From an uncultured Alphaproteobacteria bacterium (GTDB lineage Bacteria > Pseudomonadota > Alphaproteobacteria > Rhizobiales > Rhizobiaceae): a stretch of DNA of 64,000 bases. The translations under genes and the position numbers were made by a program. The stretch covers positions 574,013 through 638,012 of the forward strand of contig CAVWVG010000004.1 in assembly GCA_963758355.1 (NCBI GenBank), written 5' to 3'. How positions within the stretch are numbered: the stretch's first letter is position 1; every line of letters begins with the position of its first letter. The notes beneath the pieces are model-generated. The model was not told the DNA's origin. It made no database searches and saw only the letters and a program-made list of their open reading frames with translations. Of this stretch, positions 5,332-59,911 are shown piece by piece.

Positions 5332-5421
5332 GGAGAGGTGGCCGAGCGGCTGAAGGCGCACGCTTGGAAAGCGTGTTTACGGGAAACCGTAACGAGGGTT
5401 CGAATCCCTCTCTCTCCGCCA
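5332..5421 (+). tRNA. tRNA-Ser (anticodon GGA), class II with long variable arm, encoded CCA
   Basis: Manual fold. Acceptor GGAGAGG/TCTCTCC, anticodon stem GCACGC/GCGTG with loop TTGGAAA, long variable arm TTTACGGGAAACCGTAA, T-arm GAGGGTTCGAATCCCTC, 3' GCCA. Confidence 0.9.
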
Positions 5422-5792
5422 GCGACCCCCACGACTTGTCTCCGACATCGCAGCCTCGTGCCAAGCGCGCGAAACAACGCGGTTATTTGCGCTCATTCCC
5501 GATCTGAATCGCCAAAAGCGCCGTCTTTCCGGCGACATTCGAGGCCTTTGTGGGCCGGGGTCTCCGCGCGTCTCAGAATAGGGTCGGTTTCACGAACAGG
5601 GAATTTTCTGCGATTTTGGCCAAATAACAGGGTGGCAGATCAGCTCGATCGACGAGCAGTGCAAAAATTCTACGGCAATTACAGCAGTTTAGTACGCCCG
5701 TCTGGCACTTTCCTGTTATTTGCCAAAACAGGCTGGGTGAATCGACTTAACAGGTGATTGTTTCACCCAAAACAGGCGTCGGTTGCCGAGCA
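5422..5792. repeat. Island left arm, copy 1 (non-coding, contains several AACAGG(G) motifs)
   Basis: By eye, mostly identical to 45743-46137: GCGACCCCCACGACTTGTCTCCGACATCGCAGCCTCGTGCCAAGCG...GGCCTTTGTGGGCCGGGGTCTC... Confidence 0.85.
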
Positions 5793-7406
5793 TCAGTTTG
5801 TTCGGCCATGTGCAGATGGGATGGGCGATGGCGCTCCAAAACGCCGTGCCTGTTCTGCCCATGAACCAGGGATTTCGGCTTCCATCAGGCGCGCTAGCGT
5901 AAGGCCCAGCGGTTGACGGCCTGAGAGAATGGCTTGCTGCAGGTTGGGCGCCAGGAAAGCGAGGCGGACGAGCCGACGGCGCCAGAGTGAGTCCGGCGCC
6001 GATCGCATAATGGGCATGCCGGACGGATCGGCTTCGACCATGGCGTGGGCGGTGCGCAAGGCCTTGATCAACGTCGGGTCCGGTCGCAATGCGGAATCCC
6101 TCCCGCAAACGACACTTGTGGGTCCGCCGCGGGTGCGAACGCAAATCGGCAGAGTCAGACGAAGCCGCCCTGGGTCTGCGTAATCGGGATCGGCCCGTTC
6201 CTCTTTTGTGAGCCGCCGGCGAATCGTGTCGAGGTGACGGATCGGCATCAGCATCTCGACATGGTCGACGTGGACCTCGATGCGGGATGGCAAGCTGAGC
6301 GGTTCACTCTGCCGGCCATTCGTCAATCGCTCCAACATCTCCGAGAGCCGAGCTTCGAAAGCCGCGGCCGCCACGCGCCGAACGTTGTCGTCGACATTCC
6401 CTGGTCTTGGGCGCCCTTGCTGGAGCGGAGCGGATACATAATAGCGATAAAGTTTTCCCGTCTTGCCGTAAGCTGTGGCGGGCGACATCGGTTCGCCCTC
6501 GGCATCAAAGATCCGGCCGGCCAAGGGTGCTCGTGCGACCCTGTTGCGGCTCTGCGCATGGCGGCGGACATTGGCATCGAGTTGTTGCTGGACCGCTTCG
6601 AACGTGTCCGTGCCGATGACGGCGGGATGCATGCCGGGATGGGCTTTATCCCTGTGAACGATCATGCCGAGATAGGTGCGATTGCGCAGCAGGTGAAACA
6701 GAGCCCCCCGGCTTAAGGGATGGCCTCCCAAAATCTTACCGATCTTCGTTACTCGCCGCTTGGAGCGAATGTCGCGCTCGTCGAGCCAGCGTTCCAGGGA
6801 GTGAACCGAGCGAAGTTCGAGATAGGTGCGAAAAATCATCCGCACGATCTCGGCCTCTGCCTCGTTGACGACCAGTGCGCGCGACCCATCCACCGCCGGG
6901 TCGTAGCCGAGCGGCAGCGTTCCGCCCATCCACATCCCCCTGGCCTTGGAAGCGGCGATCTTGTCGCGAATGCGTTCACCGGTCACTTCCCGTTCGAACT
7001 GGGCGAAGGACAGCAGGACGTTGAGCGTCAAGCGCCCCATGCTGCTGGTGGTATTGAAAGCCTGGGTGACACTGACGAAGCTCACTTGGTGGCGATCGAA
7101 CAGTTCGACCATCCGCGCAAAATCCGCCAGCGACCGCGTCAGGCGATCGATCTTGTAGACAACGACAATATCGATCTTTCCTGCTGCAATATCTGCCAGC
7201 ATACGCTGCAGCGCCGGTCGTTCCATCGACCCACCGGAGAATCCGCCATCGTCGTAACGATCCTTGACGGCGCGCCAGCCTTCGCTTGCCTGGCTCTTTA
7301 CGTAGGCGGCGCAGGCCTCATGCTGGGCATCGAGGCTATTGAACGCTTGGTCGAGCCCTTCCTCGGTGCTCTTGCGGGTGTAGAGCGCGCAACGCTTGGG
7401 CTTCAT
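5793..7406 (-). CDS. Large serine recombinase (resolvase/invertase catalytic domain plus recombinase and zinc-ribbon-type C-terminal region)
   Basis: MKPKRCALYTRKSTEEGLDQAFNSLDAQ...VVVYKIDRLTRSL...GRLTLNVLLSFAQFERE, the canonical serine-recombinase N-terminus. 537 aa from ATG 7406. The ATGA overlaps the upstream gene stop. Confidence 0.9.
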   Translation of the reverse strand: MKPKRCALYTRKSTEEGLDQAFNSLDAQHEACAAYVKSQASEGWRAVKDRYDDGGFSGGSMERPALQRMLADIAAGKIDIVVVYKIDRLTRSLADFARMVELFDRHQVSFVSVTQAFNTTSSMGRLTLNVLLSFAQFEREVTGERIRDKIAASKARGMWMGGTLPLGYDPAVDGSRALVVNEAEAEIVRMIFRTYLELRSVHSLERWLDERDIRSKRRVTKIGKILGGHPLSRGALFHLLRNRTYLGMIVHRDKAHPGMHPAVIGTDTFEAVQQQLDANVRRHAQSRNRVARAPLAGRIFDAEGEPMSPATAYGKTGKLYRYYVSAPLQQGRPRPGNVDDNVRRVAAAAFEARLSEMLERLTNGRQSEPLSLPSRIEVHVDHVEMLMPIRHLDTIRRRLTKEERADPDYADPGRLRLTLPICVRTRGGPTSVVCGRDSALRPDPTLIKALRTAHAMVEADPSGMPIMRSAPDSLWRRRLVRLAFLAPNLQQAILSGRQPLGLTLARLMEAEIPGSWAEQARRFGAPSPIPSAHGRTN

Positions 7407-7819
7407 TGGTCGTTTTCCCGCAGACCGAAGAAGCGCGGACCGTTCCAGCGGGTGCCGGCAATAGCGGTAGCGACCGCCGAAAGGCTCGAATAGACCCGCC
7501 CCTCCCAGCGGAACCCGTTGGCTTCGACGATGACCTCGACGGTCTTGCCGGCCCATCGGCGTCGCAATACCGCGCCGATTCCCAATTCCAGACCCTCGGC
7601 TCGAACCGGTCCGTTGCGGGCCAACTTGCGTCGCATATCCGGATCGAGGCCACCGAGAGCATCGGCTTGAATCCGCCAGGCGAGTGCGAGACGTAGCAGT
7701 GGCACCGATCGCAAGGCTGGCGGCGGGCCGTAACGCCGCCGCCAGACGTCCCGCAGGGCATCGAGGTCAAGGCCTTCAAGCGCCTCGACCTCGATGCCGG
7801 TAACGTAGCCGGATTTCAT
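7403..7819 (-). CDS. DUF2924 domain protein (recombinase-associated)
   Basis: LDLDALRDVWRRRYGPPPALRSVPLLRLALAWRIQ...GRVYSSLSAVATAIAGTRWNGPRFFGL is typical of DUF2924. 4-bp overlap with the recombinase start. Confidence 0.75.
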   Translation of the reverse strand: MKSGYVTGIEVEALEGLDLDALRDVWRRRYGPPPALRSVPLLRLALAWRIQADALGGLDPDMRRKLARNGPVRAEGLELGIGAVLRRRWAGKTVEVIVEANGFRWEGRVYSSLSAVATAIAGTRWNGPRFFGLRENDQ

Positions 7820-8109
7820 TCGGGCTTTGCCAGTGAATAGCGGCGTACGCCGTCGACCTTGCGCGAGCCGACGGCATGGCCCCGCTTCTTCAGCGCACCG
7901 GCAATGGCGCCGCGAACCGAATGCGGCTGCCAACCAGTCTCCTTAGCCAGTTCGGCAATCGTGGCGCCGCGAGGTTTGCGAAGCAATTCGACAAGCTGGT
8001 CCAGCTTCGTCTTTCGTGGACCACTTCCCGTGGCGGATCGCTTGGAACTATCAGCGCCCGACGCATTAACGAGCTTGGTATTCTTAGCCGCAATCAATGG
8101 CTTGGTCAT
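7816..8109 (-). CDS. DUF3489 domain protein (small winged-helix-like, recombinase-associated)
   Basis: KLDQLVELLRKPRGATIAELAKETGWQPHSVRGAIAGALKKRG is DUF3489-like. GAGGAG precedes the tandem ATGs at 8115/8109. Overlaps the DUF2924 start. Confidence 0.7.
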   Translation of the reverse strand: MTKPLIAAKNTKLVNASGADSSKRSATGSGPRKTKLDQLVELLRKPRGATIAELAKETGWQPHSVRGAIAGALKKRGHAVGSRKVDGVRRYSLAKPE

Positions 8110-8330
8110 ATCCATCTCCTCTTTAAGGCGGGGAAACTCCGCTGCTACCGAGGAGAGCCCGGCGCGGCCGGGCACGGGATCAACAACGCTCTGTTCTGGT
8201 CCGAAGTCCAGCGTTCAAAGAATTTTATATACGCAACATGAACGAACGCATGACTAGGGCGATCGATCCTGCAATGACCTGGAACCCCGGTGCCAGATCG
8301 CCAAGATCGCGCATAACGCCGTAATGCTGG

Positions 8331-8705
8331 TTACGTTGGCAACCCAAATTGGACGAGGAAGTTTTTGTGATCCTCACAATTGACCGGCAAGGTGTCGACT
8401 TGCTTCGCACCGAGAAAATCCGTCGACGTAATTTGCAACGACACTTGCACTTGGGTTCCACAAGCGATGATGCCCATATTCGCACCGGGAACCGCCTTCA
8501 CGTTCAGTATGGTTAGTAGCCTCGACTTGCCGGGTTCAACAATCGCGTTCTCGATCGTTCTAAGTTCCGCGACAGGCAGGTTCATGCCGCTAACTTTTGC
8601 ATCTCCCAATTGACCGCTGAGCGTCACGGCCGCCACCGTTCCGGGCCTCACGCCGGAATTTGAAACGAGGATGAGCAGCAGCGGCGCCTCGCTGATTTGG
8701 AGCAC
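8331..8705 (-). CDS. Hypothetical protein, possibly a fragment truncated by the adjacent IS3 scar
   Basis: 124-aa ORF in a visibly AT-richer stretch. No motif recognised. Its 5' end abuts the IS3 remnant. Confidence 0.3.
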   Translation of the reverse strand: MLQISEAPLLLILVSNSGVRPGTVAAVTLSGQLGDAKVSGMNLPVAELRTIENAIVEPGKSRLLTILNVKAVPGANMGIIACGTQVQVSLQITSTDFLGAKQVDTLPVNCEDHKNFLVQFGLPT

Positions 8706-8939
8706 TCAATGAGCCGGCGCGGGAACTGCCACGACAATGCTGTCGCCGAGAGCTTCTTTAACCTGCTCAAGCGGGAGCGGATACGGCGCCGGACCTACAA
8801 GACCCGCGCCGAGGCGCGCCAGGACGTGTTCGACTACATCGAGATGTTCTACAACCCGAAGCGCAAGCATATGAGAAACGGGATGCTGTCACCCGTCGAG
8901 TTCGAACGACAGCAGGAAATGAGAACCGAGGGCGTCTAG
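8697..8939 (+). pseudogene. IS3-family transposase (OrfB) C-terminal remnant
   Basis: SRRGNCHDNAVAESFFNLLKRERI...ARQDVFDYIEMFYNPKRKHMRNGMLSPVEFE is the end of the rve integrase core. No N-terminal part is present. Confidence 0.85.
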
Positions 8940-8981
8940 AAAACTCGGGGCTATTCATGGCCGTAAATTCAAACTGAGACA

Positions 8982-10151: not shown

Positions 10152-10517
10152 TTACGATGCAACGTGATCGGATTCGGCCGATGACGTATTGACGGACGAA
10201 GGCGACCTGCTTGGCATTGAGTTCCAGGGTGCAAGCACAAGGTCGCGCCGGACGACAATACGGATCGGGAACCCCGGCCTGATTGTCAGCGTCGGCTGGA
10301 CGTCGAGCTGGCGGCGCACGATTTCGTCGCCGATGTCGGCGATCGTGCCCTGCGCGCGCTCGCGGATCGCCTTGGCGATTTTGCTCTCGCCGGACGAGCT
10401 GAGTTCGGCGCCGCTGCCGAGCAGGCATAAGGAAAGCGACTCAAAGAACGCGATCACATCATCGCGACGCGGCTTGCAGCGAATGGCAACTTCACCTTCA
10501 GAACTGACGCCGTGCAC
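10152..10517 (-). pseudogene. TrbI/VirB10 conjugal-transfer protein, C-terminal remnant
   Basis: ...TIADIGDEIVRRQLDVQPTLTIRPGFPIRIVVRRDLVLAPW matches the conserved TrbI/VirB10 C-terminus. The rest of the gene and its operon are absent. Confidence 0.6.
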
Positions 10518-46137: not shown

Positions 46138-47391
46138 TCAGCTTGTTCGGCCGCGTCCAGATCGGATGGGAGATGGCGCTCCGAAACGCCGCGCCTGTTC
46201 TGCCCATGAACCGGGGATTTCGGCTTCCATCAAACGCGCGAGCGTGAGGCCCGGCGGCTGACGACCTCCGAGAATGGCCTGCTGCAGGTCGGGCGCCAGG
46301 AAAGCGAGGCGAACGAGCCGACGGCGCCGGAGTGTGTCCGGCGCCGATCGGAGACCGGGCATGCCAGAGCGATCAATTTCAGCCATGGCGTGGGCGGTGC
46401 GCAAGGCCTTGATCAACGTCGGGTCAGGGCGAGACGCGGATTCGACCCCGCCCGTCACATGCGTGCGCCCGCCGCGCGTGTGCATGGAGATCGGCAGCAT
46501 CAGACGAAGCTGACCTGGGTCTGCGTGATCGGGCTCGGCCTTCTCTCCATTCGCTAGTTGCCGCCGGATCGCGTTGAGATGACGGATCGGCATCAGGATC
46601 TCGACATGGTCGGCGTGGGCTTCGACGCGCGATGGCAAACTGAGCGGCTCGCTCTGCCGGCTATTCGTCAATCGCCGGAGGATTTCCGAGAGCCGACTTT
46701 CGAGCGCTGCGGCCGGCACGCGCCGAACGATGTTGTCGCCACTCCCTGATCTTCGGCGCCCTTGCTGCAGGGGAGCGGACACATAATAGCGATAGAGTTT
46801 TCCTGCCTTGCCGTATGCTGAGGCTGGCGACATCGGTTCACCGTCGGCATCGAATATCCGGCCGGCCAAAGGTGCTCGTGCGACCTTGTTCCGGCTCTGC
46901 GCATGACGACGAACATTGGCATCGAGTTGTTGCTGGGCCGCGTCGAAGACTTCGGGGTCGATGATGGCAGGATGCATGCCGGGATGGGCCTTGTACCTGT
47001 GAACGATCATGCCGAGATAGGTGCGATTGCGCAGCAGGTGGAACAGGGCACCCCGGCTGAAGGGCATGCCTCCCAGGACCCTTCCCTTTTTCGTTACCCG
47101 CCGCTTCGAGCGGATACCGCGCTCGTCCAGCCAACGTTCCAGCGCGTGAACCGAGCGAAGTTCGAGATAGGCGCGGAAGATTGTCCGTACGGTCTCGGCC
47201 TCTTCCTCATTGACGACGAGTGCACGCAATCCGTCCGTCGGCGGGTCGTAGCCGAGCGGCAGCATTCCACCCATCCACATCCCTCTGGCCTTGGAAGCGG
47301 CGATCTTGTCGCGAATGCGTTCGCCGGTAACCGCGAGAACCCGGTCTTTAGCGATGGCGGCTTGAATTTCCTGGGGGCTCATTTTTGGCAT
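46138..47391 (-). pseudogene. Large serine recombinase lacking the N-terminal catalytic domain
   Basis: From VTGERIRDKIAASKARGMWMGG onward it is collinear with and highly similar to the 5793-7406 protein. The first roughly 170 aa, including the catalytic serine region, are replaced by the unrelated MPKMSPQEIQAAIAKDRVLA. Confidence 0.85.
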
Positions 47392-47465
47392 GTCGCCAGC
47401 CTACCACGGGCACGCCGACAAGGTATCAATGTGGGCCGGGGTTGAACCCAGCCGGATGGCCTGCT

Positions 47466-47610
47466 GCCGGCATTTCGGACACGAGGTTAAGCTAATATAG
47501 CTCGTTCCTCGAACTCCACGGGGCTCAGATAGCCCAGCGTCGAGTGGCGGCGCCTCTAATTGTAGAAGCGTTCGATGTAGTCGAACACATCCGCCCTGGC
47601 GTCCCTCGTC
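47466..47610 (-). pseudogene. IS3-family transposase 3' remnant with an internal stop
   Basis: My translation: TRDARADVFDYIERFYN*RRRHSTLGYLSPVEFEERAILA*. It begins abruptly at 47610, directly abutting the stop of the lipoprotein gene. Confidence 0.75.
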
Positions 47611-49347: not shown

Positions 49348-49424
49348 GTACTGATCCCCCACGATCTAGTCTTGTCTGTGACGTGCTCCCCGATTTGCGG
49401 AGGCAAACCAAACAACTGAGAGGT

Positions 49425-49453
49425 GGGGGCGGAGTGTTGGTTGTTCCGCCCCC
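49425..49453 (-). terminator. Strong hairpin after the second peptide gene (terminator or attenuator)
   Basis: GGGGGCGGA-N11-TCCGCCCCC, a perfect 9-bp GC stem. On the coding (minus) strand it is followed by ACCTCTCAGTTGTTTGGTTTG (moderately U-rich). Confidence 0.55.
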
Positions 49454-49490
49454 TGTTGTCCGGTCAACGGCTGGTTAGGCCGTCAGTTCT

Positions 49491-49637
49491 TCAGCAAGCG
49501 GCGAGACAGATCGACCGGGCCGGTTCGGGGAGCCGGTTGCAAAGTATCTCGCAGAGTCCCGAAGGGGTAACCCCGCCGGAGATCTTAGTTGGCGTCGCCG
49601 TCCGCTGAACGGCGCTGGCCTGAGTTGGCATTTTCAT
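49491..49637 (-). CDS. Cys-rich precursor-like peptide B (48 aa)
   Basis: MKMPTQASAVQRTATPTKISGGVTPSGLCEILCNRLPEPARSICLAAC. GAGAGGA SD 7 nt before ATG 49637. Its leader is paralogous to that of peptide A. Confidence 0.6.
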   Translation of the reverse strand: MKMPTQASAVQRTATPTKISGGVTPSGLCEILCNRLPEPARSICLAAC

Positions 49638-49730
49638 CTTGGAGTCCTCTCTGATCTGCTGGCCCGGGACGCACAGCAATGAAGTGTCTGCACCTACGTC
49701 CGCCCCCGCAGCGGTGTGCAGCCCGTTGTT

Positions 49731-49946
49731 TCAGAAGCAATCGATGCAGCCGGACGCGCCAATTCCTGCGAGGCACTCAACGCAGGCTGTCCCCAAGGAT
49801 CCGACGCAGACGGCGCCGCAGGCTATGATCGCGGTTCCGCACGCGATCTTCTTCAAGACATTGCAGCCTGATGGCTCTATTGAGTCTTCGTCCGGAGCCT
49901 GACTTGCATTTCGGAGTACGGGCAGAGCTTGAACGGGCATCATCAT
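49731..49946 (-). CDS. Cys-rich precursor-like peptide A (71 aa)
   Basis: Verified codon by codon: MMMPVQALPVLRNASQAPDEDSIEPSGCNVLKKIACGTAIIACGAVCVGSLGTACVECLAGIGASGCIDCF. AAGGAGAG SD. Starts 79 bp after the protease gene. Confidence 0.65.
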   Translation of the reverse strand: MMMPVQALPVLRNASQAPDEDSIEPSGCNVLKKIACGTAIIACGAVCVGSLGTACVECLAGIGASGCIDCF

Positions 49947-50024
49947 TACAGTCTCTCCTTGTTGAAGCTGGATCGGAATGCGGCCAGCAGTTGGTGATCA
50001 TCAGAAATCGAAGCGAATTCGGGC

Positions 50025-51937
50025 TTACACGCGCTTGGTCCAGCTCCGGACCGTTCCAACGGTGACCGGAATTACCTCGCTAACATCGATGGTGAACCGA
50101 AACACACGGTTCGCCATGTTCATGTTGTTCGGTTGGAAGAACGACAATTCGACGTCATAGCATTCGGAGTTGATCCTGCAGATCGGACTCTTCTTGACCT
50201 CGATGGTGTCGAGCTCGAGCTGATGCTGCGTGGAGACCCGCACGACGTCGACAATCTGAACCGCGTTCGTGGCAGAGTAATTCAGCGCGCGATCCTCGCC
50301 GGTGATCCCGAGATTGCGCAGATCGTAATAAATTCGATTGAGGAAGTTACCGAGCCCGCCGGCGAGCGCGTCGAAGCTCTTTTGAGCCTCGGCTGCCTTC
50401 GGACGCGGACCGAGCACATGGCTGACAAGAGCCGGCGTCGCCCAGCTGAACATGCCGCGCATAGAAGGCACGATCACCGGGACCACCTGGCCCGACTGTA
50501 GTCGCACGCTGCCGCCGATCACACCCGGAACCGAGATCAACTCCACACCGTCGGTCAATTGCCCTTTCAACAGGCTCACTATCCGCCCATAGCCCGCAGA
50601 TGCGAATGGTCCGACAGGCTGAATGGCGTAGATCGGGGTGACATCGACATTCAGCGTCCAGATCACGGACCCTGCTTCAGATGGATTTGCATCCAAATAG
50701 GAAAGCAGCTGCTCAGGAATTGGGGATTGTTGATCCCGACCGGCATGGCCTGGGTGAACGAGTTGCGACGCGCTTCAGATCCGAAGTCGTACCCAAGTTT
50801 CCCGAGCGCGTAGACGAACGGCAGTTTCTGCGCAACCTTCTCGCCCCCGCACCCGCAGCCGGATTTCTTTTCGCCACCTCCGCAACCACAACCGCCATCG
50901 GACGGAGTGAGGTCGGACATCGCGATGCCGGATATCTCCGCGGGACCGCTCGGCATCGGACTTCCGGTGCCGCCGTCTCCTTTGATTTCAGATGCGGTAA
51001 AACCGGCTTCGCTCATTGAATGATTTTCAACTTCGCTCATGCTCATAACTCCCTTCTGGATGTGATCAATGGCACCCTGGACGTTGATTCGGCCTGCGAG
51101 TATTCTCGAGCACTCCTCAACGCCAGACGGAATGCAGGGAATTGCGGAATGCAGCAGCGCTTCGCCGACCGCGCGCGGATCCGGCGACCGTCCAACCTTG
51201 ATCTGACTGCTTAGTAGAAGTGCGGCGAGCCCGGACACCAGCGGGGTCGCAAAGCTCGTTCCGCTCTTTCGCGCCATGCCGCCTTGCAAGGCAGCGCCCA
51301 GTATGTCGGATCCTGGCGCGAGGATGCCCTGATTGCGATACGTCGAGCCGTAGTTGCTGGACGGCAGCGGTTGACACTTGTCGTCCATGGCGCCGACGGC
51401 CAGCACAGAAGCGACGGCTGCGGGAATGTGCAGACACTCGCAGCCGTCGTTGCCGGCGGCCGCGACGATCAGGACATTCTGCCTAATGCAGCTATCGATC
51501 GCCTGTGCCAGTATCGGATGCGGTTCCCCGGACTTTGCTAGCTGGCCGCCGCTGATATTTATGACGTGTGCGCCGTTCTCGACCGCGAGCAGAATGGCGC
51601 GCGCCAAGTCGAGTTGCGAACATTTCAGGCTGTCGTCGCCGAAAACCGGGACGATCAAACCACCACAGAATGGCGCAATGCCCTCTATCGAACTGCCTAG
51701 CTGCCCAAAAATCAGGCTGGCAACGTGGGTCCCGTGCTCCGTGGCGCCGCCGTCGGCCGAAGTTACGCTGGCAACCGTTTTCAACGGCGTCAAACGAGCG
51801 CCGCGAAAGCAATCATGCGTGAGGTCCACGGGACCATCGAGCACGGCAATCGTAACGTTCGGATCGCCGCCTCCGAGCGCAATCAGAACATCCTGACGAA
51901 ATACTGCAGCCGTTCTGCCAACCATTACACTCTCCAT
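50025..51937 (-). pseudogene. PatA/PatG-family (cyanobactin-type) S8 subtilase with C-terminal PatA/G DUF. One -1 frameshift as assembled; may be intact in reality
   Basis: Catalytic triad contexts VLDGPVDLTHDCF / EHGTHVASLIFGQ / SGTSFATPLVSGLAALLLS. Linker contains GGCGCGGGEKKSGCGCGG. DUF signature is FVYALGKLGYDFGSEARRNSF ... (frame change at the GGGG run 50722-50725) ... QLLSYLDANPSEAGSVIWTLNVDVTPIYAIQP. Likely start at M5 (51925), behind GGAGAG. Confidence 0.8.
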
Positions 51938-51970
51938 CGCCGCACGCAGAGCAACGCGCCAGCCATGCCT

Positions 51971-52234
51971 TCATCTGCTTTTGCAAACTATCCAGCAAAC
52001 CGCTTCGCACTGGGGCCCAGCGCCTCTGCGCCGGCATTCTCGGATACAGCGAGAGCAGGACGAGACGGATGCCGGCCTCTCGGCTCGCATTGGCGTCATG
52101 CGCGCCGCCGGCTTGATGATCGGCTGGAGGTCGGCTGCCATCGCAGATAACGGCAGCAGCACGCCAGCCCCGCTGACGCCGGTAGCCCACAACGCAAGCG
52201 CAATCATGAAAATCCGTTTTCGAAACACGAGCAT
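51971..52234 (-). CDS. Small secreted Cys-rich protein (87 aa precursor)
   Basis: Sec-type signal MLVFRKRIFMIALALWATGVSGAGVLLPLSAMA|ADL. The C-terminus SSCSRCIRECRRRGAGPQCEAVCWIVCKSR has six Cys. GAGG SD. Sits immediately upstream of the protease gene. Confidence 0.5.
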   Translation of the reverse strand: MLVFRKRIFMIALALWATGVSGAGVLLPLSAMAADLQPIIKPAARMTPMRAERPASVSSCSRCIRECRRRGAGPQCEAVCWIVCKSR

Positions 52235-52244
52235 GATCCTGCCT

Positions 52245-52478
52245 CTATTCCGCGCCGGATGTCCGGCCTATCTGTCGACCGCCAACGCTGCCCGGGAATC
52301 GGGAAACGAACGTTGCCTCGACGCCCCCGGCGACGACATCCTGACGTTCTGATAGCGCTTGCTGTCGGTCTGTTGGTGCGGCTGGCCGGGCGCGAGATTG
52401 ACAACCTTTGCGCACGCCCGAGTGGGGGCCCGCGCTCATCGCGCAAACTGCCCATCCGAGCACAACAAGTCTGTTCAT
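52245..52478 (-). CDS. Small hypothetical protein with a signal-like N-terminus (77 aa)
   Basis: MNRLVVLGWAVCAMSAGPHSG...; AGGGA before the ATG; first ORF of the minus-strand cluster. No family recognised. Confidence 0.25.
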   Translation of the reverse strand: MNRLVVLGWAVCAMSAGPHSGVRKGCQSRARPAAPTDRQQALSERQDVVAGGVEATFVSRFPGSVGGRQIGRTSGAE

Positions 52479-52637
52479 GCGGTATCCCTAGTTGCGAGCG
52501 CCGATGAATTTCGGTTGGGCACACCATTCCGCGGCGACGTTCGCAATTTGCGAACAAAGGGTTCAGGTCATGAGAAAAAAACGTGATCGAGTTGTGAAAA
52601 CTGGTATGTTCGCTTTGGGCGGGAGGACGAAATAAGT

Positions 52638-54410
52638 GTGATGGCCGCGGTTAAGCAGTTCACGATGGGTCTATTCGGGCCCTTTCGACTTCTGAAACCC
52701 GGGGGTGAGCGCATAGAGATCCCCAGCAAAAAAGGAGTTGCGGTGGTTGCAATGCTCGCCATGGCAAAGGACGGCGAGCGCGCACGCGGTTGGCTGCAGG
52801 AAAAGCTATGGGGACAGCGGCAGCAAGCCGAAGCGCGCGGAAGCCTGCGTCGCGAACTTTCGAACCTTCGAAAACTGCTCAACCAAGACAGTGCAGCGCT
52901 TCTCGTTTGCGAACACGACCGCGTTCAGCTCGACCTCAAGCTGATCAACATCGATGCACGGAGCAGCCGCGATCACCCGCTGGCCTGCGAGTTTCTTGAA
53001 GGCTTGGACATTCCGGGCGAAGATGGATTCGAAGACTGGTTGCGAGACCAACGGGCTGCTCTGGCCCTGGAAGTGCGGCCTGCGGCGGTGATGCCAGGCA
53101 AGAAACCCGGTGATTCCAGAGAGATCGTTTCGTCGCTGCCAAGCCACATCGTCGATACAACAGAGCCGCCAGCCGGCTTTGACGGTAACCCGGCGCTCGC
53201 CGTCATGCCGTTCTCTAACGCGACTGGCGAAAGCGAACATAACTATCTCGCGGAAGGCATCAGCGAGGAAATTATCGATCGTCTGTCGCGGATCCGCTGG
53301 CTGCCTGTTATCGCGCGCAGCATGAGTTTCTCATTGTCCGATGTTTCCAACAGAAGAATCGTCAGCAAGAATTTGGGAGCGAAATATCTTCTCGAGGGCC
53401 GTCTGCGCCGCGAGCAAACAGGATATGGGATCGCCGCCAGCTTGATCGACGGGCCGAGCGGCCACACCCTGATGTCGCAGCGATTTGCCATAGACTCCCT
53501 GATTTCGCGGAATTCGTTTGAAGAATTCATGACCGAACTTGTCGCTCATCTCGAAGCACGGATCGATCACACCGAACAGGTCTGGACGCGCAGCAAGCGC
53601 CGGGACAGCCTCACCGTGAAGGACCTGATCTGGCGCGGCCGCTGGCACCTCAACAGACTGACCCGGGCCGACGCCAAGATAGCGCAGAAACTCTTTGCCG
53701 AAGCTCGCGCGCTCGATCCAGATTCGTCGGAGGCCCTCATCCAATCGACGTTTGCATTGGGCTGGGCAATCTGGGCCGGCCGCCAGCCGACCGAACGCAT
53801 AGCTGAAATGAAAAAGCTGGCCCAGGATGCGATCTACGCGGACCGGGACGACGGCCGCGGCTATATGCTGGCCGGTATCGCGGAGATGTGGCTGCGTCAT
53901 CCGATAGCCGCCAGAAGACTGTTGCAACAGGCGATCGAACTCAACCCGAGCCTTGCACTGGCAAGGGCGCATCTTGGTGGGAGCTGCAACCTTTCGGGCG
54001 AGCCAAGCGAGGCTATTTCGCATCTCAAGGCCGCACTGCGCCTCAGCTCAAATGACTCGCATACCTTTTATTCGCTTGCGGAACTGGCGCTTGCGTTCTG
54101 CATGCTCGGATTGTGGGATGAGGCGATCGAGCACGCCGATCACTCTCTCGCCCGCCGCCCGGCGTATTGGTACGCCCACGTCATCAAGATCAACGCCATG
54201 GCCAGGAAGGGCGAACTTTCCGCTGCGCGCCGTGCGCTGGACGAATTGCTGTCGGTGAAGCCGAATTTTTCACGGCGATACGTTGAATGGCTTCCGTTCG
54301 TGGACCGAACCTGGATCGGTCATTTCATGGCGGGCCTGAACATGGTCCCGGGCTACAGCATTGATCTTCCACCAGGAGACGATCAGGAGTTCCCCAGGGA
54401 GTTGAACTGA
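52638..54410 (+). CDS. SARP/BTAD-like winged-helix transcriptional regulator with a TolB-N-like middle and a TPR C-terminus
   Basis: LFGPFRLLKPGGERIEIPSKKGVAVVAMLAMA...RGWLQEKLWG...ARGSLRRELSNLRKLL (BTAD pattern). NPALAVMPFSNATGESEHNYLAEGISEEIIDRLSRI. TPR-like C-terminal repeats. Confidence 0.75.
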   Translation: MMAAVKQFTMGLFGPFRLLKPGGERIEIPSKKGVAVVAMLAMAKDGERARGWLQEKLWGQRQQAEARGSLRRELSNLRKLLNQDSAALLVCEHDRVQLDLKLINIDARSSRDHPLACEFLEGLDIPGEDGFEDWLRDQRAALALEVRPAAVMPGKKPGDSREIVSSLPSHIVDTTEPPAGFDGNPALAVMPFSNATGESEHNYLAEGISEEIIDRLSRIRWLPVIARSMSFSLSDVSNRRIVSKNLGAKYLLEGRLRREQTGYGIAASLIDGPSGHTLMSQRFAIDSLISRNSFEEFMTELVAHLEARIDHTEQVWTRSKRRDSLTVKDLIWRGRWHLNRLTRADAKIAQKLFAEARALDPDSSEALIQSTFALGWAIWAGRQPTERIAEMKKLAQDAIYADRDDGRGYMLAGIAEMWLRHPIAARRLLQQAIELNPSLALARAHLGGSCNLSGEPSEAISHLKAALRLSSNDSHTFYSLAELALAFCMLGLWDEAIEHADHSLARRPAYWYAHVIKINAMARKGELSAARRALDELLSVKPNFSRRYVEWLPFVDRTWIGHFMAGLNMVPGYSIDLPPGDDQEFPRELN

Positions 54411-54446
54411 CGTTCATTTCAATACGATTTTCTTGATGAGGCAGCC

Positions 54447-57400
54447 ATGTTGACGCTGAAATATTACGCCGCGATCAAAGGAGCTCAGCACAAGACAGAA
54501 GCCGACCCGCCCGACGCTATCCTGCCTTTCGACTTCGACAAACTCGGAGCAGATAGCTGGCGCCGACGCGCATTTATCTGGCTGACCGGCTGGCTGTTTC
54601 CTGTAGTGCTCGCGTTGTTTCGTGCGATCTGGCCCAATCCGAAATTCTGGCGTCTCATTATCGTGACGCGCGCCACCGACGTTCGCGACGTCCTGATGAG
54701 GACTGCCGACTTCGAGGTGCCCTATCGTCTCGAGATGACCGAACTCGCCGGAGGAGAAAAATTCGTTCTGGGCATGGAAGGCTCCGGTCACGACCAACAG
54801 AACCAACACATTCGAACCGTTATGCCGGCCAGCGACGCCCAGGTGGTCATCGACTTGAGTCATCGATTTGCGAACGCCCTGATCAGAACGTCAGGCGGCC
54901 GCATCGACGTGATGAAGGACTTCATCACTCGGATCGCCACCGAAACCTGTGCCGCCTATTTCGGACTACAGCTGGAAGATCCCGACGCTTTTGCAGAATG
55001 GACGATGTCGATCTCTGCTCTGCTGTTCGCCGATCCCTTCGGCGACGCCGCCACGCGGGAGTTGGCTCTGAATGGCGCGGCTCGTGTGCGCGCCGTCATA
55101 GACCATTCGATCGCGAATGCGGCAAGTCTGCCGCCAAACACCGTCCTTGGCCGGTTGATCGGTCTCAAGGCAACGGACCAGACTCTAACGGACAAGAAGA
55201 TCGGCGCCATCCTGGTCGGATTGGCAACCGGATTTATTCCGACGAATACGCTCGCCGCCGGAAAGATTTTGCAGGAACTGCTACGCCGTCCGAAACTCCT
55301 GCGCGATGCCATCGGCAAAGCACGTAACGCCAGCCGGATTGACGGCGAAAATCGAATGACTGGCAGAAACGAGAACCCTGACAAGCAGGCGCTTCAGGCA
55401 ATCCTTCTTGAGGCTGCGCGCGTTAACCCCGCTCTAGCCCCCGGACAATGGCGCTACGCCAGACAGGACGCTGTCATCGCGCCCGACACCTGGCGACAGC
55501 GAAAGGTACCGAAGGGCTCGGTGCTGATGGTCGCGACCATGTCGGCATTGCGGGAAAAGTCTAACGGCGCCAAACCCGATACGGACCTTATGTTCGGCGA
55601 CGGCATCCACGCATGTCTGGGCAAGTACATCGCGATGGCCCAGATCACCGAAGTGTTTACTATCCTGCTTTCACAAATCAATCTGCGCTTCAGCGAGGAT
55701 ACCTGGGGCAGCCGCATCAGATGGGTTGGCCCGTTCCCCCGCCGGCTCGACATGACGTTTGATCCGGCTGTCTCGCCCAGCACCCAAGCCATGATCACGA
55801 TCTGCGCCCCCCTTGTCGTCGGCGAGGGAGAGGACCCTGCCAAGAAGGCGCAGGACATTCAGAGGAAGATTGCGGAGCTGAAAAATCCGGCGAACGCCCA
55901 GATGCGGGAGACGTTCGACAAGACCGGCATCGTCCACTTCGCTTCGCTCTCGCTGGTCGAGGCAGGCGATGCCAAGAGCCCGGCGCCGCATCTGCTGTTT
56001 GAACTGAATGTCGATGGTTCCGGCGAAACGGCGTTTCAGCTAATCGCCAATGCAGATATCGAAGTGGCCGATGGCAAACTCCATTCGATATTCCGGAACA
56101 CGCTCAAGAGCAACGCAGGCCTTGCCGATATCCTCAGCAGCTACGTCCTCGAATTGAAAACCCGTCCGTGGGGCCCGATCGGCCTTAACTTTAACGGTAC
56201 GCCGGAGTTTTCCGTTCCCGACATTGCGATGCAGGAATTGCTGTCGAAATTCGCCAAGCAGACCCTTAATTTCTATATGAGTTTTCACTCCGGTTTCGGT
56301 AATCGCGCAATGGAGGCGCTGAAGTTCATCCGCATATTCTTACGCAATCCCTCCGCATACCAAGCCGTTCTAAAGGACCCCAGATACGATAGTGCGGAAT
56401 TGCGGGAGATGATCGATGTGGCACCAAAACTAGTGGATTACCTTATCGTTCCAAGCAGGCGGCAGCTCAAAATCTCTGCCTGGAAGGATTGCAGCCGTAA
56501 GGAGGCGATTTTCAAGTTCGTGCAGACTTGGAATTTCTGGTGCTTCGCCCTCCCTGTGATCATGGTCGCTTTTCTGTTTGGACTCGCGATCTTCTTCGCG
56601 ACGGCGACGTCAGCGATCATTTTGCTTGGCCTTGCGGGCCGAATCACGCTCGCCGTCATCGGCGGTCCCGCGATGGTGCTGATTTTGCTGGCACTTGTCG
56701 TCACTGTTTTCGTGGCCTTGCTTCGACACCACGAGATCCGCGACATTCCGGACGATCAGAATCCGAATCTCGAGCATGTCCGCGAGATCAGCGGCATCGA
56801 AAACGCGCCCGGGTTCGCGCAAAATCATTTTATGGCCGTTACAGAATTGAAGGGCGGATGGTTCAGGAAGGTGACGCTTGCGTTGTCCCTGTGGGGCATC
56901 AAGCAAATGGTGCTGTTTCTATTCCGCCCCGGCTTCGTCCTCAACATGGGGACCATTCATTACGCGAAATGGTTTCGAATACCGGGTCGCGACAAATTGA
57001 TCTTCCAGGCCAACTACGACGGTAGCTGGGAAAGCTACCTGGAGGATTTCATTATGAAGGCCCACCAGGGCCAGACCGCAGCCTGGGGCAACGGCGTCGG
57101 CTTTCCCCGCACCAGTTACCTGATTAATAACGGCGCCCAGGATGGCGACCGATTTAAGCGCTGGGTACGCCGCCAACAGGTCATCGCGCACTTCTGGTAC
57201 AGCCGCTTTCCCCACCTAACGGCTGATCAGATCCGCAACAACGCGCTGATCCATGACGGACTGGCGCGGGCGGCGACCGGCTCGGCCGCTCGCGCCTGGC
57301 TCGACTGCTTTAGCTCTATCCCTCGCCCGGACTACGCCATCGAGAGCGATGAGGTTCAGTCACTGGTGTTCCGGGGCCAGCGGTCACTGCCTTGCTCGAT

Positions 57401-59036
57401 CTGCGCCCTGATCCATTTGCCCGGTACCAAGCAAGCTCGCATCAAATGGCTTGAAAAACTCGAATATGGCAGCGCGTCGCGGCATGGTAGCATCCAACTG
57501 CGGGAACGGGACAAATCCTGCGAAATCACATTTGGTGACCATCCCTCTAACGGCGAGCGCGAGCGGAACCATGCCACGTTCGTCGCCTTTAGCGCGGCCG
57601 GACTGCACAAGCTCGGCCTCGCCGATCCGACCAAGCAGGACGGACTGGGTACGTTTCCCAACACGTTCAATCTCGGGATGGCCAACCGCGGCCGCAGCCT
57701 TGGCGATTTCGGAGAGACCGCGTCGGCTGAGTGGCGCTGGACAGACGCGGCCATTAAAATAGGTGGCCCCGCGGCCGTCGATGCCGTGCTGCTGATATGC
57801 GCCGGTAGTTCCGAAGCGTGCAGGGAGGCTCTCGGCAAGCATCTCGAATTGCTCGGGCCTGGCGCCTTGGCTCATGAGATCCCGACCCAGCCCCCGACCC
57901 AGATCCTAGGCTACGATGACGAAGGGCGCGCCGTCATCAAGACGCTACCCGACGAGACCAGCAAAACCGGTCGCCGTCCGGTCGCTGGCTATGCCAAGGC
58001 AAGCACAACGGCTAAGATCGATCCCGTCGAATACGAGCATTTCGGGTTTCGCGACGGCATTTCCCAGCCGGTGATCCGGGGAACCCAGCGGTTCTCGAAA
58101 GGTGCCCGCAAGCGCGACATTGTTGAGCCCGGCGAATTCATTCTCGGATACCGCAACAATCAGGGATACTATCCGCCGACCGCGACCGTACGTGCTGAAT
58201 CGGATTCGAAGCTGCATCTTCCGATCGTGCTTGCCGATGTTCCAAGCCGATTCCCCTCGTATGGAGGGGGCAATGCCGCCGCGCGCGATTTCGGCCGAAA
58301 TGGAAGCTTCCTCGTCATCCGGCAACTTGAGCAGAATGTCGAAGGATTCAAGGATTTCGTCGAGGCAAAGGCCTCGGAGCTGCGGCGCGAGTATGAAGGC
58401 CTTACCGAAGCTGCGGGCGCGCCCATCACCGCGCAATGGGTCGCCGCTAAGATGTTGGGTCGGTGGCCTGACGGCGCGCCGCTGGTCGACCGTCCCAGCG
58501 CGAACAGTGGTGGCTATCTACAAAAGCACGAACAAAGCGATAACAACTTTACCTTTGGTGCAGACGATCCACAGGGCCTGCTTTGTCCATTTGGCGCCCA
58601 CATTCGCCGTGCCAACCCGCGCGACAGCATGCAGCCGGACGATCCCTCACAGCAGCCGATCACCAATCGCCATCGGCTCCTGCGGCGTGGCAGAACTTAC
58701 GAATACGAGCCCAAGAAAGACGGCAGGATCGAAAAGGGCCTGTTGTTCATCTGCCTCTGCGCCGATCTGGATCGGCAGTACGAATTCGTCCAACAAACCT
58801 GGATTCAATCGCCTTCATTTCACGGCCTGAAAGACGAGCCCGACCCGATGGTGGCTTGCCCGGACCCCGGCAAATCCCGCGTCTTTACAATTCCAACACC
58901 GGCGGGACCGGTCAGGATACGCAACATGAAGACCTTTGTGACCGTCCGCGCAGGCGGCTACTTCTTCCTGCCGAGCCGTTCGGCCATCCGGTATCTGGTG
59001 GACATCAACCAGGCTGAGCACACGCTACGAACATGA
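54447..59036 (+). CDS. 1529-aa fusion: N-terminal cytochrome P450, two middle regions of unknown function on either side of a 3-TM cluster, and a C-terminal DyP-type peroxidase
   Basis: P450: ExxR (LEAARVNP) and heme-thiolate loop FGDGIHACLGKYIA (about 55593-55634). TM cluster FWCFALPVIMVAFLFGLAIFFATATSAIILLGLAGRITLAVIGGPAMVLILLALVVTVFVALL (about 56535-56720). DyP: EHFGFRDGISQPVIRG (GxxDG, about 58035) and PFGAHIRRANPRD (proximal His, about 58590). One uninterrupted ORF; GAGG SD. Confidence 0.85.
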   Translation: MLTLKYYAAIKGAQHKTEADPPDAILPFDFDKLGADSWRRRAFIWLTGWLFPVVLALFRAIWPNPKFWRLIIVTRATDVRDVLMRTADFEVPYRLEMTELAGGEKFVLGMEGSGHDQQNQHIRTVMPASDAQVVIDLSHRFANALIRTSGGRIDVMKDFITRIATETCAAYFGLQLEDPDAFAEWTMSISALLFADPFGDAATRELALNGAARVRAVIDHSIANAASLPPNTVLGRLIGLKATDQTLTDKKIGAILVGLATGFIPTNTLAAGKILQELLRRPKLLRDAIGKARNASRIDGENRMTGRNENPDKQALQAILLEAARVNPALAPGQWRYARQDAVIAPDTWRQRKVPKGSVLMVATMSALREKSNGAKPDTDLMFGDGIHACLGKYIAMAQITEVFTILLSQINLRFSEDTWGSRIRWVGPFPRRLDMTFDPAVSPSTQAMITICAPLVVGEGEDPAKKAQDIQRKIAELKNPANAQMRETFDKTGIVHFASLSLVEAGDAKSPAPHLLFELNVDGSGETAFQLIANADIEVADGKLHSIFRNTLKSNAGLADILSSYVLELKTRPWGPIGLNFNGTPEFSVPDIAMQELLSKFAKQTLNFYMSFHSGFGNRAMEALKFIRIFLRNPSAYQAVLKDPRYDSAELREMIDVAPKLVDYLIVPSRRQLKISAWKDCSRKEAIFKFVQTWNFWCFALPVIMVAFLFGLAIFFATATSAIILLGLAGRITLAVIGGPAMVLILLALVVTVFVALLRHHEIRDIPDDQNPNLEHVREISGIENAPGFAQNHFMAVTELKGGWFRKVTLALSLWGIKQMVLFLFRPGFVLNMGTIHYAKWFRIPGRDKLIFQANYDGSWESYLEDFIMKAHQGQTAAWGNGVGFPRTSYLINNGAQDGDRFKRWVRRQQVIAHFWYSRFPHLTADQIRNNALIHDGLARAATGSAARAWLDCFSSIPRPDYAIESDEVQSLVFRGQRSLPCSICALIHLPGTKQARIKWLEKLEYGSASRHGSIQLRERDKSCEITFGDHPSNGERERNHATFVAFSAAGLHKLGLADPTKQDGLGTFPNTFNLGMANRGRSLGDFGETASAEWRWTDAAIKIGGPAAVDAVLLICAGSSEACREALGKHLELLGPGALAHEIPTQPPTQILGYDDEGRAVIKTLPDETSKTGRRPVAGYAKASTTAKIDPVEYEHFGFRDGISQPVIRGTQRFSKGARKRDIVEPGEFILGYRNNQGYYPPTATVRAESDSKLHLPIVLADVPSRFPSYGGGNAAARDFGRNGSFLVIRQLEQNVEGFKDFVEAKASELRREYEGLTEAAGAPITAQWVAAKMLGRWPDGAPLVDRPSANSGGYLQKHEQSDNNFTFGADDPQGLLCPFGAHIRRANPRDSMQPDDPSQQPITNRHRLLRRGRTYEYEPKKDGRIEKGLLFICLCADLDRQYEFVQQTWIQSPSFHGLKDEPDPMVACPDPGKSRVFTIPTPAGPVRIRNMKTFVTVRAGGYFFLPSRSAIRYLVDINQAEHTLRT

Positions 59037-59362
59037 TCGATTTAATAAATTCCTCAAATCGGGCTTGCCTCGCCTCGACTGTTACAGCGTCAGATCATCC
59101 CAATTCCGGTTCTGGGCATGACCCAAGGCAAGGTTGGATTCGGTCCCGCGCCATCAGTCTTGCTCGGGTTCCCTTCCGACTCCATACACGGGGCGGGAAC
59201 CGCTTTTTGGCGAACCGGCGCCAGCTTCGCATGTGCGCAAAACGACAACGTGCTACAGCGAAACGACAATTGCCAATCGTTTAACGCAGATGCCATCCCG
59301 CATAGGCACAATTACCAACCATTCTGCGCCAATCCGATCCCGCGTTTCGACAATTCGGTCGC

Positions 59363-59410
59363 ATAATGATAGCCCGATCCCGGATAATGGCACTTCCATC
59401 CCAGATAATG
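59363..59410. repeat. Three ATAATG motifs phased exactly 21 bp apart in the right arm of island 2
   Basis: ATAATG at 59363, 59384 and 59405. The last two sit in a longer repeat, ATCCC(G/A)GATAATG. Confidence 0.5.
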
Positions 59411-59581
59411 AAAATGCCAATTCCTTGATCGCGAGGGCATATGCCTGAAATTGCGGGATGATTCCCTGTTCGACGGCGCAGGGAATTGAGAGCCAACCGA
59501 TTGATATTACATAGTTATTGTCGATGAGGTCGGATTGAAAACGCCGAAATCGCCAGTTTTCGCTGTTTTTTCACTGTTTAT

Positions 59582-59630
59582 CAGGGAACGGTACCGGAGA
59601 CTTGTTCGCTAAGGACTGCCAGCACCGCCA
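59582..59630. repeat. Island right-end repeat, copy 2
   Basis: See 45692-45742. Followed by the unrelated sequence CCACGCAGATTGTCC (presumed original tRNA-Ser flank). Confidence 0.8.
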
Positions 59631-59911
59631 CCACGCAGATTGTCCGGCCCGGAGACATGGGTAACAGTTTGTACCTAGGACATGGATGACAATCTCGTGC
59701 CGAAACGCTGGCGCGGTCGCCACGCGTCCTGGACCAGGGCCGGGTTCATCGCTAGCAGCGAAATTATTTGCCTAGTGGGCTTCCGCTGGCACCGCGGCAG
59801 CCGAGCCCGCCCAAAACTGGTTTCGTATATCAGAATTTTCTAATATAACTGGTGGAACGCTGCGACGACACTGGGCGGGAGGGCAGCGGTTCATTTTGTC
59901 AGGAGGATGCC

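Follow-up and report, generated by a model that had tools for sequence, protein, structure and literature searches.

Two genomic islands stand head to tail directly after a tRNA-Ser gene of an uncultured alphaproteobacterium of the Rhizobiaceae, in a 64,000-nucleotide stretch of DNA (assembly GCA_963758355.1, contig CAVWVG010000004.1 of 757 kb, positions 574,013 to 638,012) that is called the window below. Both are most probably integrative elements of a single family, moved by a large serine recombinase that targets the 3' ends of tRNA genes, an unusual choice for such enzymes; the family is widespread in Alphaproteobacteria and has hardly been described. Such a recombinase had been proposed as the responsible enzyme from the letters of the window alone (the sequence-only reading), and very probably it is: the tRNA adjacency of its clade, the conservation of the arms of the elements and the failure to find any tyrosine integrase among the scanned open reading frames of the islands all point to it. 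Precedents are known for serine-recombinase islands at tRNA or transfer-messenger RNA (tmRNA) ends, and the picture obtained at the level of the clade is more interesting than the apparently decaying pair of islands itself.

The tRNA-Ser(GGA) gene (positions 5332-5421, forward strand) is intact including its CCA end and is the sole tRNA gene of the window according to both ARAGORN and Rfam (RF00005, 56 bits). Island 1 occupies 5422-45742 (40,321 bp) and island 2 occupies 45743-59630 (13,888 bp), forming a composite of 54,209 bp. By direct reading, the left junction lies at 5421/5422 (...CTCTCTCCGCCA followed by GCGACCCCCACGACTTGTCTCC), the middle junction at 45742/45743 (...GACTGCCAGCACCGCCA followed by GCGACCCCC...) and the right junction at 59630/59631 (...GACTGCCAGCACCGCCA followed by CCACGCAGATTGTCC). 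Bases are numbered from the junction, with minus to its left, on the side of the tRNA or of the P arm of the element, and plus to its right, on the P' or B' side. The P' core half-site of island 1 (GCGACCCCCACGACTTGTCTCC, 5422-5443, forward strand) has an exact second copy at 45743, and the left arm of the island continues from this core to the recombinase stop codon (5444-5792, forward strand). The P arm closing island 1 lies at 45709-45742 (GAGACGAGTTTGCTAAAGACTGCCAGCACCGCCA, forward strand) and forms, with the P' core and left arm of island 2 (45743-46137, forward strand), an attP-like middle junction. Island 2 ends with its own P arm at 59597-59630 (GAGACTTGTTCGCTAAGGACTGCCAGCACCGCCA, forward strand), the P half of attR, which is followed at 59631-59656 by the presumed B' half of attB (CCACGCAGATTGTCCGGCCCGGAGAC, forward strand). 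At the other extremity, the T-arm, acceptor 3' strand and CCA of tRNA-Ser constitute the B arm of attL.

The arms and junctions that the sequence-only reading had noticed at 5422, 45743 and 59614-59630 are borne out by direct reading and far exceed chance. The 22-nucleotide left arm occurs exactly twice in the window and gave no match in 100 shuffles, even with up to 3 mismatches allowed; the 17-nucleotide right arm also occurs exactly twice, with no copy further inside the islands and one extra match at 15314 carrying 3 mismatches (shuffle mean 0.28). Homology between the two left arms extends over about 630 bp and reaches the 3' end of the recombinase gene, with 93% identity between 5416-5592 and 45737-45913, then 85% and 87%; against this background of 85-93%, the first 46 nucleotides past the junction show no mismatch. 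As had also been noticed, CCGCCA (5416-5421, forward strand; tRNA nucleotides 71-76, positions -6 to -1) is the only block common to the tRNA end and the right ends of the islands, apart from a lone C at -8; position -7 differs (T in the tRNA, A in the islands). Identity between attP and attB is limited to 6 bp, as expected of a serine and not of a tyrosine recombinase. The arms are conserved over about 22 bp (P') and about 34 bp (P). The earlier description of the three sites holds for the outer two, which are attL and attR of two related islands; the middle one, taken then for a hybrid of attR and attL, is a P/P' junction and is attP-like because both of its halves are P-type.

The recombinase gene of island 1 (5793-7406, reverse strand) encodes an intact protein of 537 amino acids with Resolvase (PF00239, 2.6e-39) and Recombinase (PF07508, 7.8e-14) domains. 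Its catalytic serine is Ser13 in a YTRKST motif and is invariant in 30 homologs. Sequence matches in the PDB are the integrases of TP901-1 (catalytic domain, 1.7e-26), Bxb1, SPbeta and PhiC31. An AlphaFold2 (AF2) model with a predicted local distance difference test score (pLDDT) of 80 retrieves full-length serine integrases as top Foldseek matches (Bxb1, SPbeta, PhiC31 and LI, over about 400-466 aligned columns), including the C-terminal region of LI integrase (4kis, 6dnw; E 2e-9 to 7e-10). With its catalytic and Recombinase domains and its matching predicted fold, the enzyme looks functional. No match to the zinc-ribbon family PF13408 was found in it at E values up to 0.01. Residues 298-346 contain no cysteine, their sequence being common to nearly all of the 30 aligned homologs, and the model places a beta-ribbon at 298-325 in the position of the zinc ribbon, followed by short helices only, without a long coiled coil. 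The best named NCBIfam model is CcrB, at 139.5 bits over the N-terminal 250 residues only; this score is far below the equivalog cut-off of 900 and a Ccr identity was therefore rejected.

Two further genes belong to the same operon. A DUF2924 protein (7403-7933 or 7403-7822, reverse strand; Pfam 3.3e-37), with a weak match to MerR/CarH-like helix-turn-helix domains (E about 0.02), is encoded upstream of the recombinase gene, whose start it overlaps by 4 nucleotides, and a DUF3489 protein (7816-8175 or 7816-8112, reverse strand; Pfam 3.3e-24) is the product of the first gene of the operon. Of 73 relatives, 71 have the DUF2924 gene upstream of that for the recombinase, and 62 have the DUF3489 gene. 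In island 2, the recombinase is reduced to a remnant (46138-47391, reverse strand) in which the Recombinase domain alone survives. Its identity with the intact copy is 80% over residues 141-537, and residues 1-140, which comprise the catalytic domain, are gone. Pfam and alignment agree here with the sequence-only reading, which had described an intact recombinase with two DUF partners in island 1 and a copy without catalytic domain in island 2. Directly upstream of the truncation point lies the C-terminal fragment of an IS3-family (insertion sequence, IS) transposase with an internal stop (47500-47615, reverse strand), which forms an inverted repeat with 8822-8864.

What decides the interpretation is comparison with the relatives of the recombinase. 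A search of GTDB species representatives returned 464 of them, the closest 67% identical to the protein of the window, and at least 120 protein clusters are 62% or more identical to it. Locus analyses used the best 80 of the 464, each taken as the gene plus 10-kb flanks and submitted to ARAGORN and tblastn; the named hosts of these 80 loci (designated L below) are all Alphaproteobacteria, save two short contigs of metagenome-assembled genomes (MAGs) labelled otherwise. Sequence of at least 600 bp is available past the recombinase stop codon in 72 loci, and in 47 of these a tRNA gene stands tail to tail with the recombinase gene, at a distance of 140-416 bp from that stop codon. These tRNAs are for serine in 32 cases (Ser-GGA 19, Ser-CGA 6, Ser-GCT 4, Ser-TGA 3), the others being for valine (5), arginine (4), glutamine (3), cysteine (2) and methionine (1). 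In 7 more loci a tRNA gene lies 1-6 kb away, and of the 18 loci that have no tRNA, at least 10 carry in the expected place either a P arm or a tRNA 3' fragment: the P arm of another element in L024, L030, L042, L060 and L074, a variant form of it in L015 and L061, and a displaced tRNA 3' fragment of 17-30 nucleotides in L019, L038 and L062, as in L009 among the loci with a distant tRNA. Fragments of this length are the mark of a later insertion of tyrosine type.

The sequence-only reading would have failed had the arm proved to be what normally follows tRNA-Ser without any island. It did not: the left-arm motif lies beside the recombinase gene in every related locus examined, and related left-arm motifs follow tRNA-Gln and tRNA-Arg genes too. 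The tRNA adjacency of the clade disposes of this idea and of coincidence. A few loci are of interest in themselves. Mixed arrays (L009, L019, L038, L062 and L322) have a tyrosine-type island between the tRNA and the serine-recombinase island, with the fragment placed before the P' arm; L322 had been considered as a tandem array lacking a recombinase, an interpretation rejected on finding that its tRNA-proximal island carries a P4-type tyrosine integrase. In L219, tRNA-Ser(TGA) is followed by a 3.2-kb element with a shortened recombinase and then by a right arm, and in L292 the right arm is found just about 640 bp past tRNA-Ser(GGA), nearly the whole element being deleted.

Both arms are conserved across the family. 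In the closest relatives, the P' motif that directly follows CCA reads cCCACCCCC-N7-GTCTC(t/c), that is NNNACCCCC-N7-GTCTC, for GCGACCCCCACGACTTGTCTCC in the window; as the recombinase diverges, its type shifts to ACCCC directly followed by TGTCTC, or to NNNAGTC. The P arm has a 34-nucleotide architecture, GAGAC-N2-GTTCG.AT-N4-CTG.CAGCAC and then the five terminal bases of the target tRNA, and is found elsewhere as GAGACGAGTTCGCATTAAACTGACAGCACAGCCA (L074), GAGACCGGTTCGAATTCGTCTGGCAGCACCGCCA (L042), GAGACTGGTTCGCATTGGTCTGACAGCACCGCCA (L060) and GAGAAAAGTAGCGATGCGACTGACAGCACCGCCA (L024). Metagenomes searched with the pattern GAGAMNNGT-N10-CTGNCAGCACNGCCA yielded at least 120 contigs, against about 4 expected by a rough chance estimate, and the matches listed comprise 121 arms. 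The sequence past these arms is highly diverse, as expected of chromosomal flanks in many hosts. At positions -27 to -20, which the search pattern left unconstrained, GTTCGCAT occurs in 23 and GTTCGAAT in 20 of the arms among the matches listed; the latter is the T-loop sequence of tRNAs, shifted 3 bp away from the end relative to its place in a genuine tRNA. Of the 121 arms listed, 97 have C at position -5, 23 have A and one has T; in the relatives this base follows the target tRNA, with C for serine and A for glutamine; L074, where this base is A, shares a scaffold with the tRNA-Gln-adjacent L080. Identity between P arm and tRNA stops at -7 in both the serine type (P ...CAC/CGCCA, tRNA ...CTC/CGCCA) and the glutamine type (P ...CAC/AGCCA, tRNA ...CCC/AGCCA).

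The right arm is read, from its sequence variants, as a probable protein-binding DNA motif and not as an RNA structure. A conserved hairpin resembling a T-arm was considered and dropped: some variants can pair (GACGA/TCGTC) but the commonest one (…TAGACTG) cannot. Rfam reports only the tRNA and an IS3 ALIL pseudoknot over the window, with no RNA family matching the arms and no tRNA-fragment call at 45.7 or 59.6 kb. In viral contigs, the 16-nucleotide right-arm core gave 120 listed stretches (121 matches), one with either flanking motif and none with both; these matches look like chance, the pattern being too short, and the islands do not appear to be represented in that set.

The crossover should lie within CCGCCA. 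In the simplest reading of these alignments, the crossover dinucleotide would be -6/-5, that is tRNA nucleotides 71-72 (CC for serine, CA for glutamine). Crossover at this point, with the element supplying G73 and CCA, would explain why identity begins exactly at -6: the discriminator and CCA must match because the element would provide them to the tRNA after integration, and nothing to the left of the crossover need match. The sequence-only reading had also joined the two arms into an imperfect dyad centred inside the common core. The inverted GAGAC (-34 to -30) and GTCTC (+17 to +21) are real, with 45 nucleotides between them and 55 from outer edge to outer edge, but they form a weak dyad, the axis of which is base -7, one base to the left of CCGCCA. 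When the axis was scanned with a profile, the optimum proved shallow (scores of 11.3 at -7.0, of about 9.8 at both -6.5 and -5.5, and of 10.1 at -13.5), and a strict dyad model for placing the crossover was abandoned in the absence of a sharp optimum. The dyad is compatible with a crossover at -6/-5 to within 1-2 bp but cannot prove it. In the presumed B' half, TTGTC stands 5 nucleotides nearer to the junction than in P', where MAFFT places a 5-nucleotide gap in this single example; a similar offset between half-sites is known from structural work on serine integrase sites.

From these elements the following course of events may be proposed. The attP site of the element would consist of a P arm mimicking the T-loop and acceptor end of a tRNA, plus the P' arm; attB would consist of the T-arm and acceptor end of the tRNA and of about 20 bp downstream. 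Recombination within the six common bases would preserve an intact tRNA at attL, about 370 bp from the recombinase operon, and the P arm would land at the far end, in attR. Two related elements would have ended head to tail, leaving the attP-like P/P' junction at 45742/45743. Island 2 would later have lost the catalytic domain of its recombinase and the accessory genes through an IS3-associated deletion, and would persist as a non-autonomous passenger with perfect core half-sites.

Several observations weigh against this account. Its support is comparative anatomy: neither the empty site (a repaired tRNA-Ser followed by CCACGCAG), nor a circular junction, nor an excision product was found. An empty site was sought through homologs of the lipoate-protein ligase of the right flank (89%, 81% and 78% identity, 10-kb flanks), none of which has a tRNA upstream; synteny in these loci breaks about 100 bp before the gene. 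Look-ups of the exact proteins of flank genes retrieved one 1.6-kb contig and otherwise nothing, and no empty site. The dyad axis, at about -7, coincides with no dinucleotide common to attP and attB. With its cysteine-free zinc-ribbon region and without a long coiled coil in its model, the predicted enzyme departs from the serine integrases studied so far. Finally, at least 7 genes of the island 1 cargo are split into two or three open reading frames (ORFs), among them pgi, pgm, tkt, xfp, atpA and arcA, and flanking genes look intact; this may point to an immobile fossil or to indel errors in the assembly.

Serine integrases are reported to recombine only attP with attB, or attL with attR in the presence of a directionality factor (PMC3783163). 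Under this rule, only the 54-kb composite has a standard excision pair, in attL and attR. The suggestion that the single intact recombinase could mobilise island 1, island 2 or the composite in trans therefore agrees with the rule for the composite only, which has the canonical pair; to mobilise either island by itself, the enzyme would have to use a non-canonical pairing. Accretion and single-island excision alike would require attP × attL, attP × attR, or homologous recombination in the common arm. Tandems are too frequent for a purely accidental origin: a P'-type start directly follows the P arm in 32 of the 121 metagenomic arms listed, against 1.9 expected, and in 6 of the contigs concerned a recombinase gene lies 305-868 bp farther right. 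Tandem pairs with two recombinases also occur on single scaffolds of Novosphingobium, Sedimentitalea and Paracoccus. The frequency of P/P' junctions thus indicates that stacking is a habit of this recombinase family.

It is conceivable, if not the account that we would favour, that the recombinase made the first integration only, and that the tandem arose by RecA-dependent Campbell insertion of a circular element within the roughly 2 kb of common left arm and recombinase gene, or by a non-canonical reaction with attL or attR in the role of a pseudo-attB. The middle P/P' junction would be the product of either route. The islands share DNA that is 85-93% identical over about 630 bp, in addition to the recombinase gene, and the resemblance of the P arm to the 3' half of a tRNA means that attR could pass for attB; serine integrases are reported, moreover, not to recombine other pairings (PMC3783163). 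This scheme must contend, however, with the frequency of P/P' junctions (the 32 of 121 listed arms), with their occurrence between differing subtypes (ACCC-type with AGTC-type), for which long homology is unlikely, and with the lack, outside the 46-nucleotide core, of any stretch of almost 100% identity such as a recent homologous crossover would have left.

A further reading, which we consider rather unlikely, makes both islands immobile fossils whose sites are relics on which the intact recombinase ORF is no longer active. Decay is apparent in the split cargo genes of island 1, in the shortened recombinase of island 2 and in the IS and TrbI fragments. The three-gene integration operon is nonetheless intact, and the core half-sites of island 2, which has lost residues 1-140 of its own recombinase, are identical to those of island 1 (P' 22/22, P 17/17; 46 nucleotides without mismatch), suggesting continued constraint. 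Such perfect identity in the core, against a background of 85-93%, suggests continued recognition by one enzyme. Island 2 would then be a potential cis-mobilizable passenger, a view that the core identity supports and does not prove. As for a lost tyrosine integrase that made the insertions, with the serine recombinase a resolvase or invertase in another role, it is most improbable and already contradicted by comparative data: tRNA 3' ends are indeed classic targets of tyrosine integrases (PMC4383910) and tyrosine-type islands occupy the same tRNAs in relatives (L009, L019, L062 and L322), but only 6 bp of tRNA sequence are repeated here against the 17-30 nucleotides left by those islands, no Phage_integrase match was found by Pfam in the 54 kb (all large ORFs and ten gap ORFs scanned), and the fixed spacing and orientation of recombinase and tRNA genes in 47 of 72 relatives are beyond coincidence.

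The integration by a serine recombinase that we favour would involve an additional sequence feature. The left arm of island 1 contains six AACAGG/CCTGTT motifs, at 5595, 5626, 5712 (reverse orientation), 5727, 5749 and 5771, and that of island 2 contains six between 45919 and 46099; these two arms hold the densest 400-bp clusters of the motif in the window. The right arms carry a few copies (45532-45695; 59465), in an orientation opposite to that of the left arms across the reconstructed attP. In 75 relatives, the density of the motif between the recombinase stop and the core is 7.2 per kb, whereas the remainder of the same loci has 0.54 per kb, a 13-fold difference. Such arrays lie in loci L001-L026, and the closest 25 relatives mostly have 4-10 copies each. 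Arm-type repeats of this kind are no feature of studied serine-integrase sites. We propose that these arrays may be binding sites of the DUF2924 and DUF3489 proteins, which would thereby shape the reaction or control it.

Combining these features, one may imagine, tentatively and with more doubt than confidence, a large alphaproteobacterial clade of serine recombinases specialised on tRNA 3' ends. Its enzymes would have a cysteine-free zinc-ribbon region and would be accompanied always by DUF2924 and usually by DUF3489; the right arm of attP would mimic a tRNA; crossover would take place at nucleotides 71-72, the element rebuilding the discriminator and CCA; accessory proteins would act on AACAGG arrays; and the attP × attB rule would be relaxed, so that attL or attR can accept more elements. 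If true, the relaxed pairing rule would explain why about a quarter of the right ends abut another element.

The literature on integrative elements offers partial counterparts. The Islander paper regarded serine recombinases as not known to target tRNA genes (PMC4383910), and a review of integrative mobilizable elements (IMEs) describes those with serine recombinases as inserting within genes. A literature search, which left the TIGER survey (PMC7192596) outside its scope, found no description of this recombinase clade, of its arms or of its accessory arrays. The statement of the sequence-only reading that tRNA 3' ends are not targets of serine recombinases nevertheless has to be corrected, with precedents in the ssrA islands of Dehalococcoides (PMC3146451) and in a tRNA-Met element of Mesorhizobium (PMC8627217, Table S7).

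The Dehalococcoides islands (DsiB; McMurdie et al. 2011, PMC3146451) are similar in several respects. A serine recombinase of about 540 amino acids is encoded on the reverse strand beside attL; the islands form tandem stacks, each ending in a repeat of the 3' end of the target gene preceded by a conserved motif; and some lack an integration module and were read as cis-mobilizable (PMC3146451). They differ in their target, the tmRNA gene ssrA instead of tRNA-Ser, in a 20-bp repeat with insertion at the T-loop (the repeat here has 6 bp and belongs to the acceptor end), and in the partners of the recombinase, which are DsiA (a small serine recombinase) and RecF-like, ParB-like and Mom-like proteins instead of DUF2924 and DUF3489. 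Their hosts are Chloroflexi and not Alphaproteobacteria, and no arm arrays of the AACAGG type are described there. In the accretion model of ICESt1/ICESt3 (Pavlovic et al. 2004, as cited in PMC3146451), a recombinase-less island bounded by att sites also stands beside an autonomous relative; the model involves tyrosine recombinases and a common core kept in attL and attR, whereas the serine equivalents are non-canonical.

The Mesorhizobium element 'tRNA-Met (b)' (Colombi et al. 2021, PMC8627217, Table S7) is likewise alphaproteobacterial and is recorded beside the 3' end of a tRNA gene together with a serine recombinase, its att repeat being 13 nucleotides long; the comparison relies on its listing, a table row that gives no site anatomy, family survey or tandem. 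The staphylococcal cassette chromosome elements SCC/SCCmec (CcrAB/CcrC) are islands that large serine recombinases insert at the 3' end of a conserved housekeeping gene, and they form composite or tandem arrays and include recombinase-less passengers; they differ in targeting a protein gene, rlmH, in using two recombinases together and in residing in Firmicutes. Phage integrases (PhiC31, Bxb1, A118/LI, SPbeta and TP901-1) share the catalytic and Recombinase domains, the predicted fold and, going by the putative sites here, short att sites with little identity between attP and attB. The present system departs from them in lacking zinc ligands and any evident long coiled coil, in its conserved pair of DUF3489 and DUF2924 genes co-transcribed with the recombinase gene, in the repeat arrays that flank the core, in its tRNA target and in frequent P/P' junctions unpredicted by canonical pairing. 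Other kinds of integration sites are known for phage WO. This prophage, also an alphaproteobacterial mobile element, pairs a large serine recombinase gene with a DUF2924 gene, and the description on which this comparison is based states no tRNA target (PMC11376236).

The significance of these observations lies in an entire clade (464 GTDB loci, at least 120 metagenomic right ends) that appears to target tRNA genes, against the standard view that reserves this target for tyrosine recombinases. Such islands may be under-counted in Alphaproteobacteria, since tRNA-Ser and at least five other tRNA species are used. The imitation of the tRNA by the right arm offers a simple account of how an element could switch tRNA targets by one base change, and the frequent P/P' junctions raise a testable question about the pairing rules of serine integrases. 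Enzymes that insert beside conserved tRNA ends without disrupting them could also become integration tools for Alphaproteobacteria.

Both islands appear to be ordinary cargo carriers, apparently decaying. The cargo of island 1 (8176-45708; Pfam, Rfam) encodes between 9293 and 45302 HPF, zwf-tal-pgi-pgm-tkt, gnd, glucoamylase, phosphoketolase, an N-ATPase operon with AtpR, and arcA/B/C with a permease, which looks like a stress or low-oxygen metabolic set. The same island contains an IS3-family rve fragment (8697-8939, forward strand), a C-terminal fragment of the type IV secretion protein TrbI (10152-10517, reverse strand) and the ALIL pseudoknot reported by Rfam, an IS3 frameshift signal (27665-27780, reverse strand). 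The cargo of island 2 (47611-59036) consists of a DUF4403 protein, a PatG-like S8 subtilase in two ORFs, a tetratricopeptide repeat (TPR) protein of 590 amino acids and a protein of 1529 amino acids that is P450-like at its N-terminus and a DyP peroxidase at its C-terminus; this cargo may be a peptide-modification cluster. PADLOC returned only a generic subtilase match for this cargo and the accessory genes.

To the left of the islands, a transposase gene (3872-5255, reverse strand; helix-turn-helix and rve, 445 amino acids) ends about 120 bp upstream of tRNA-Ser and interrupts the synteny of the left flank through which an empty site would have been located; CCGGACAACTCGTGTGCT occurs twice at about 5203-5245 and is probably an IS end. 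The right flank (59852-64000) carries the lipoate-protein ligase gene, then DsrE and Hdr-like (sHdr-type) sulfur-oxidation genes, as in L081-L085, and its closest named homologs belong to Hyphomicrobiales MAGs.

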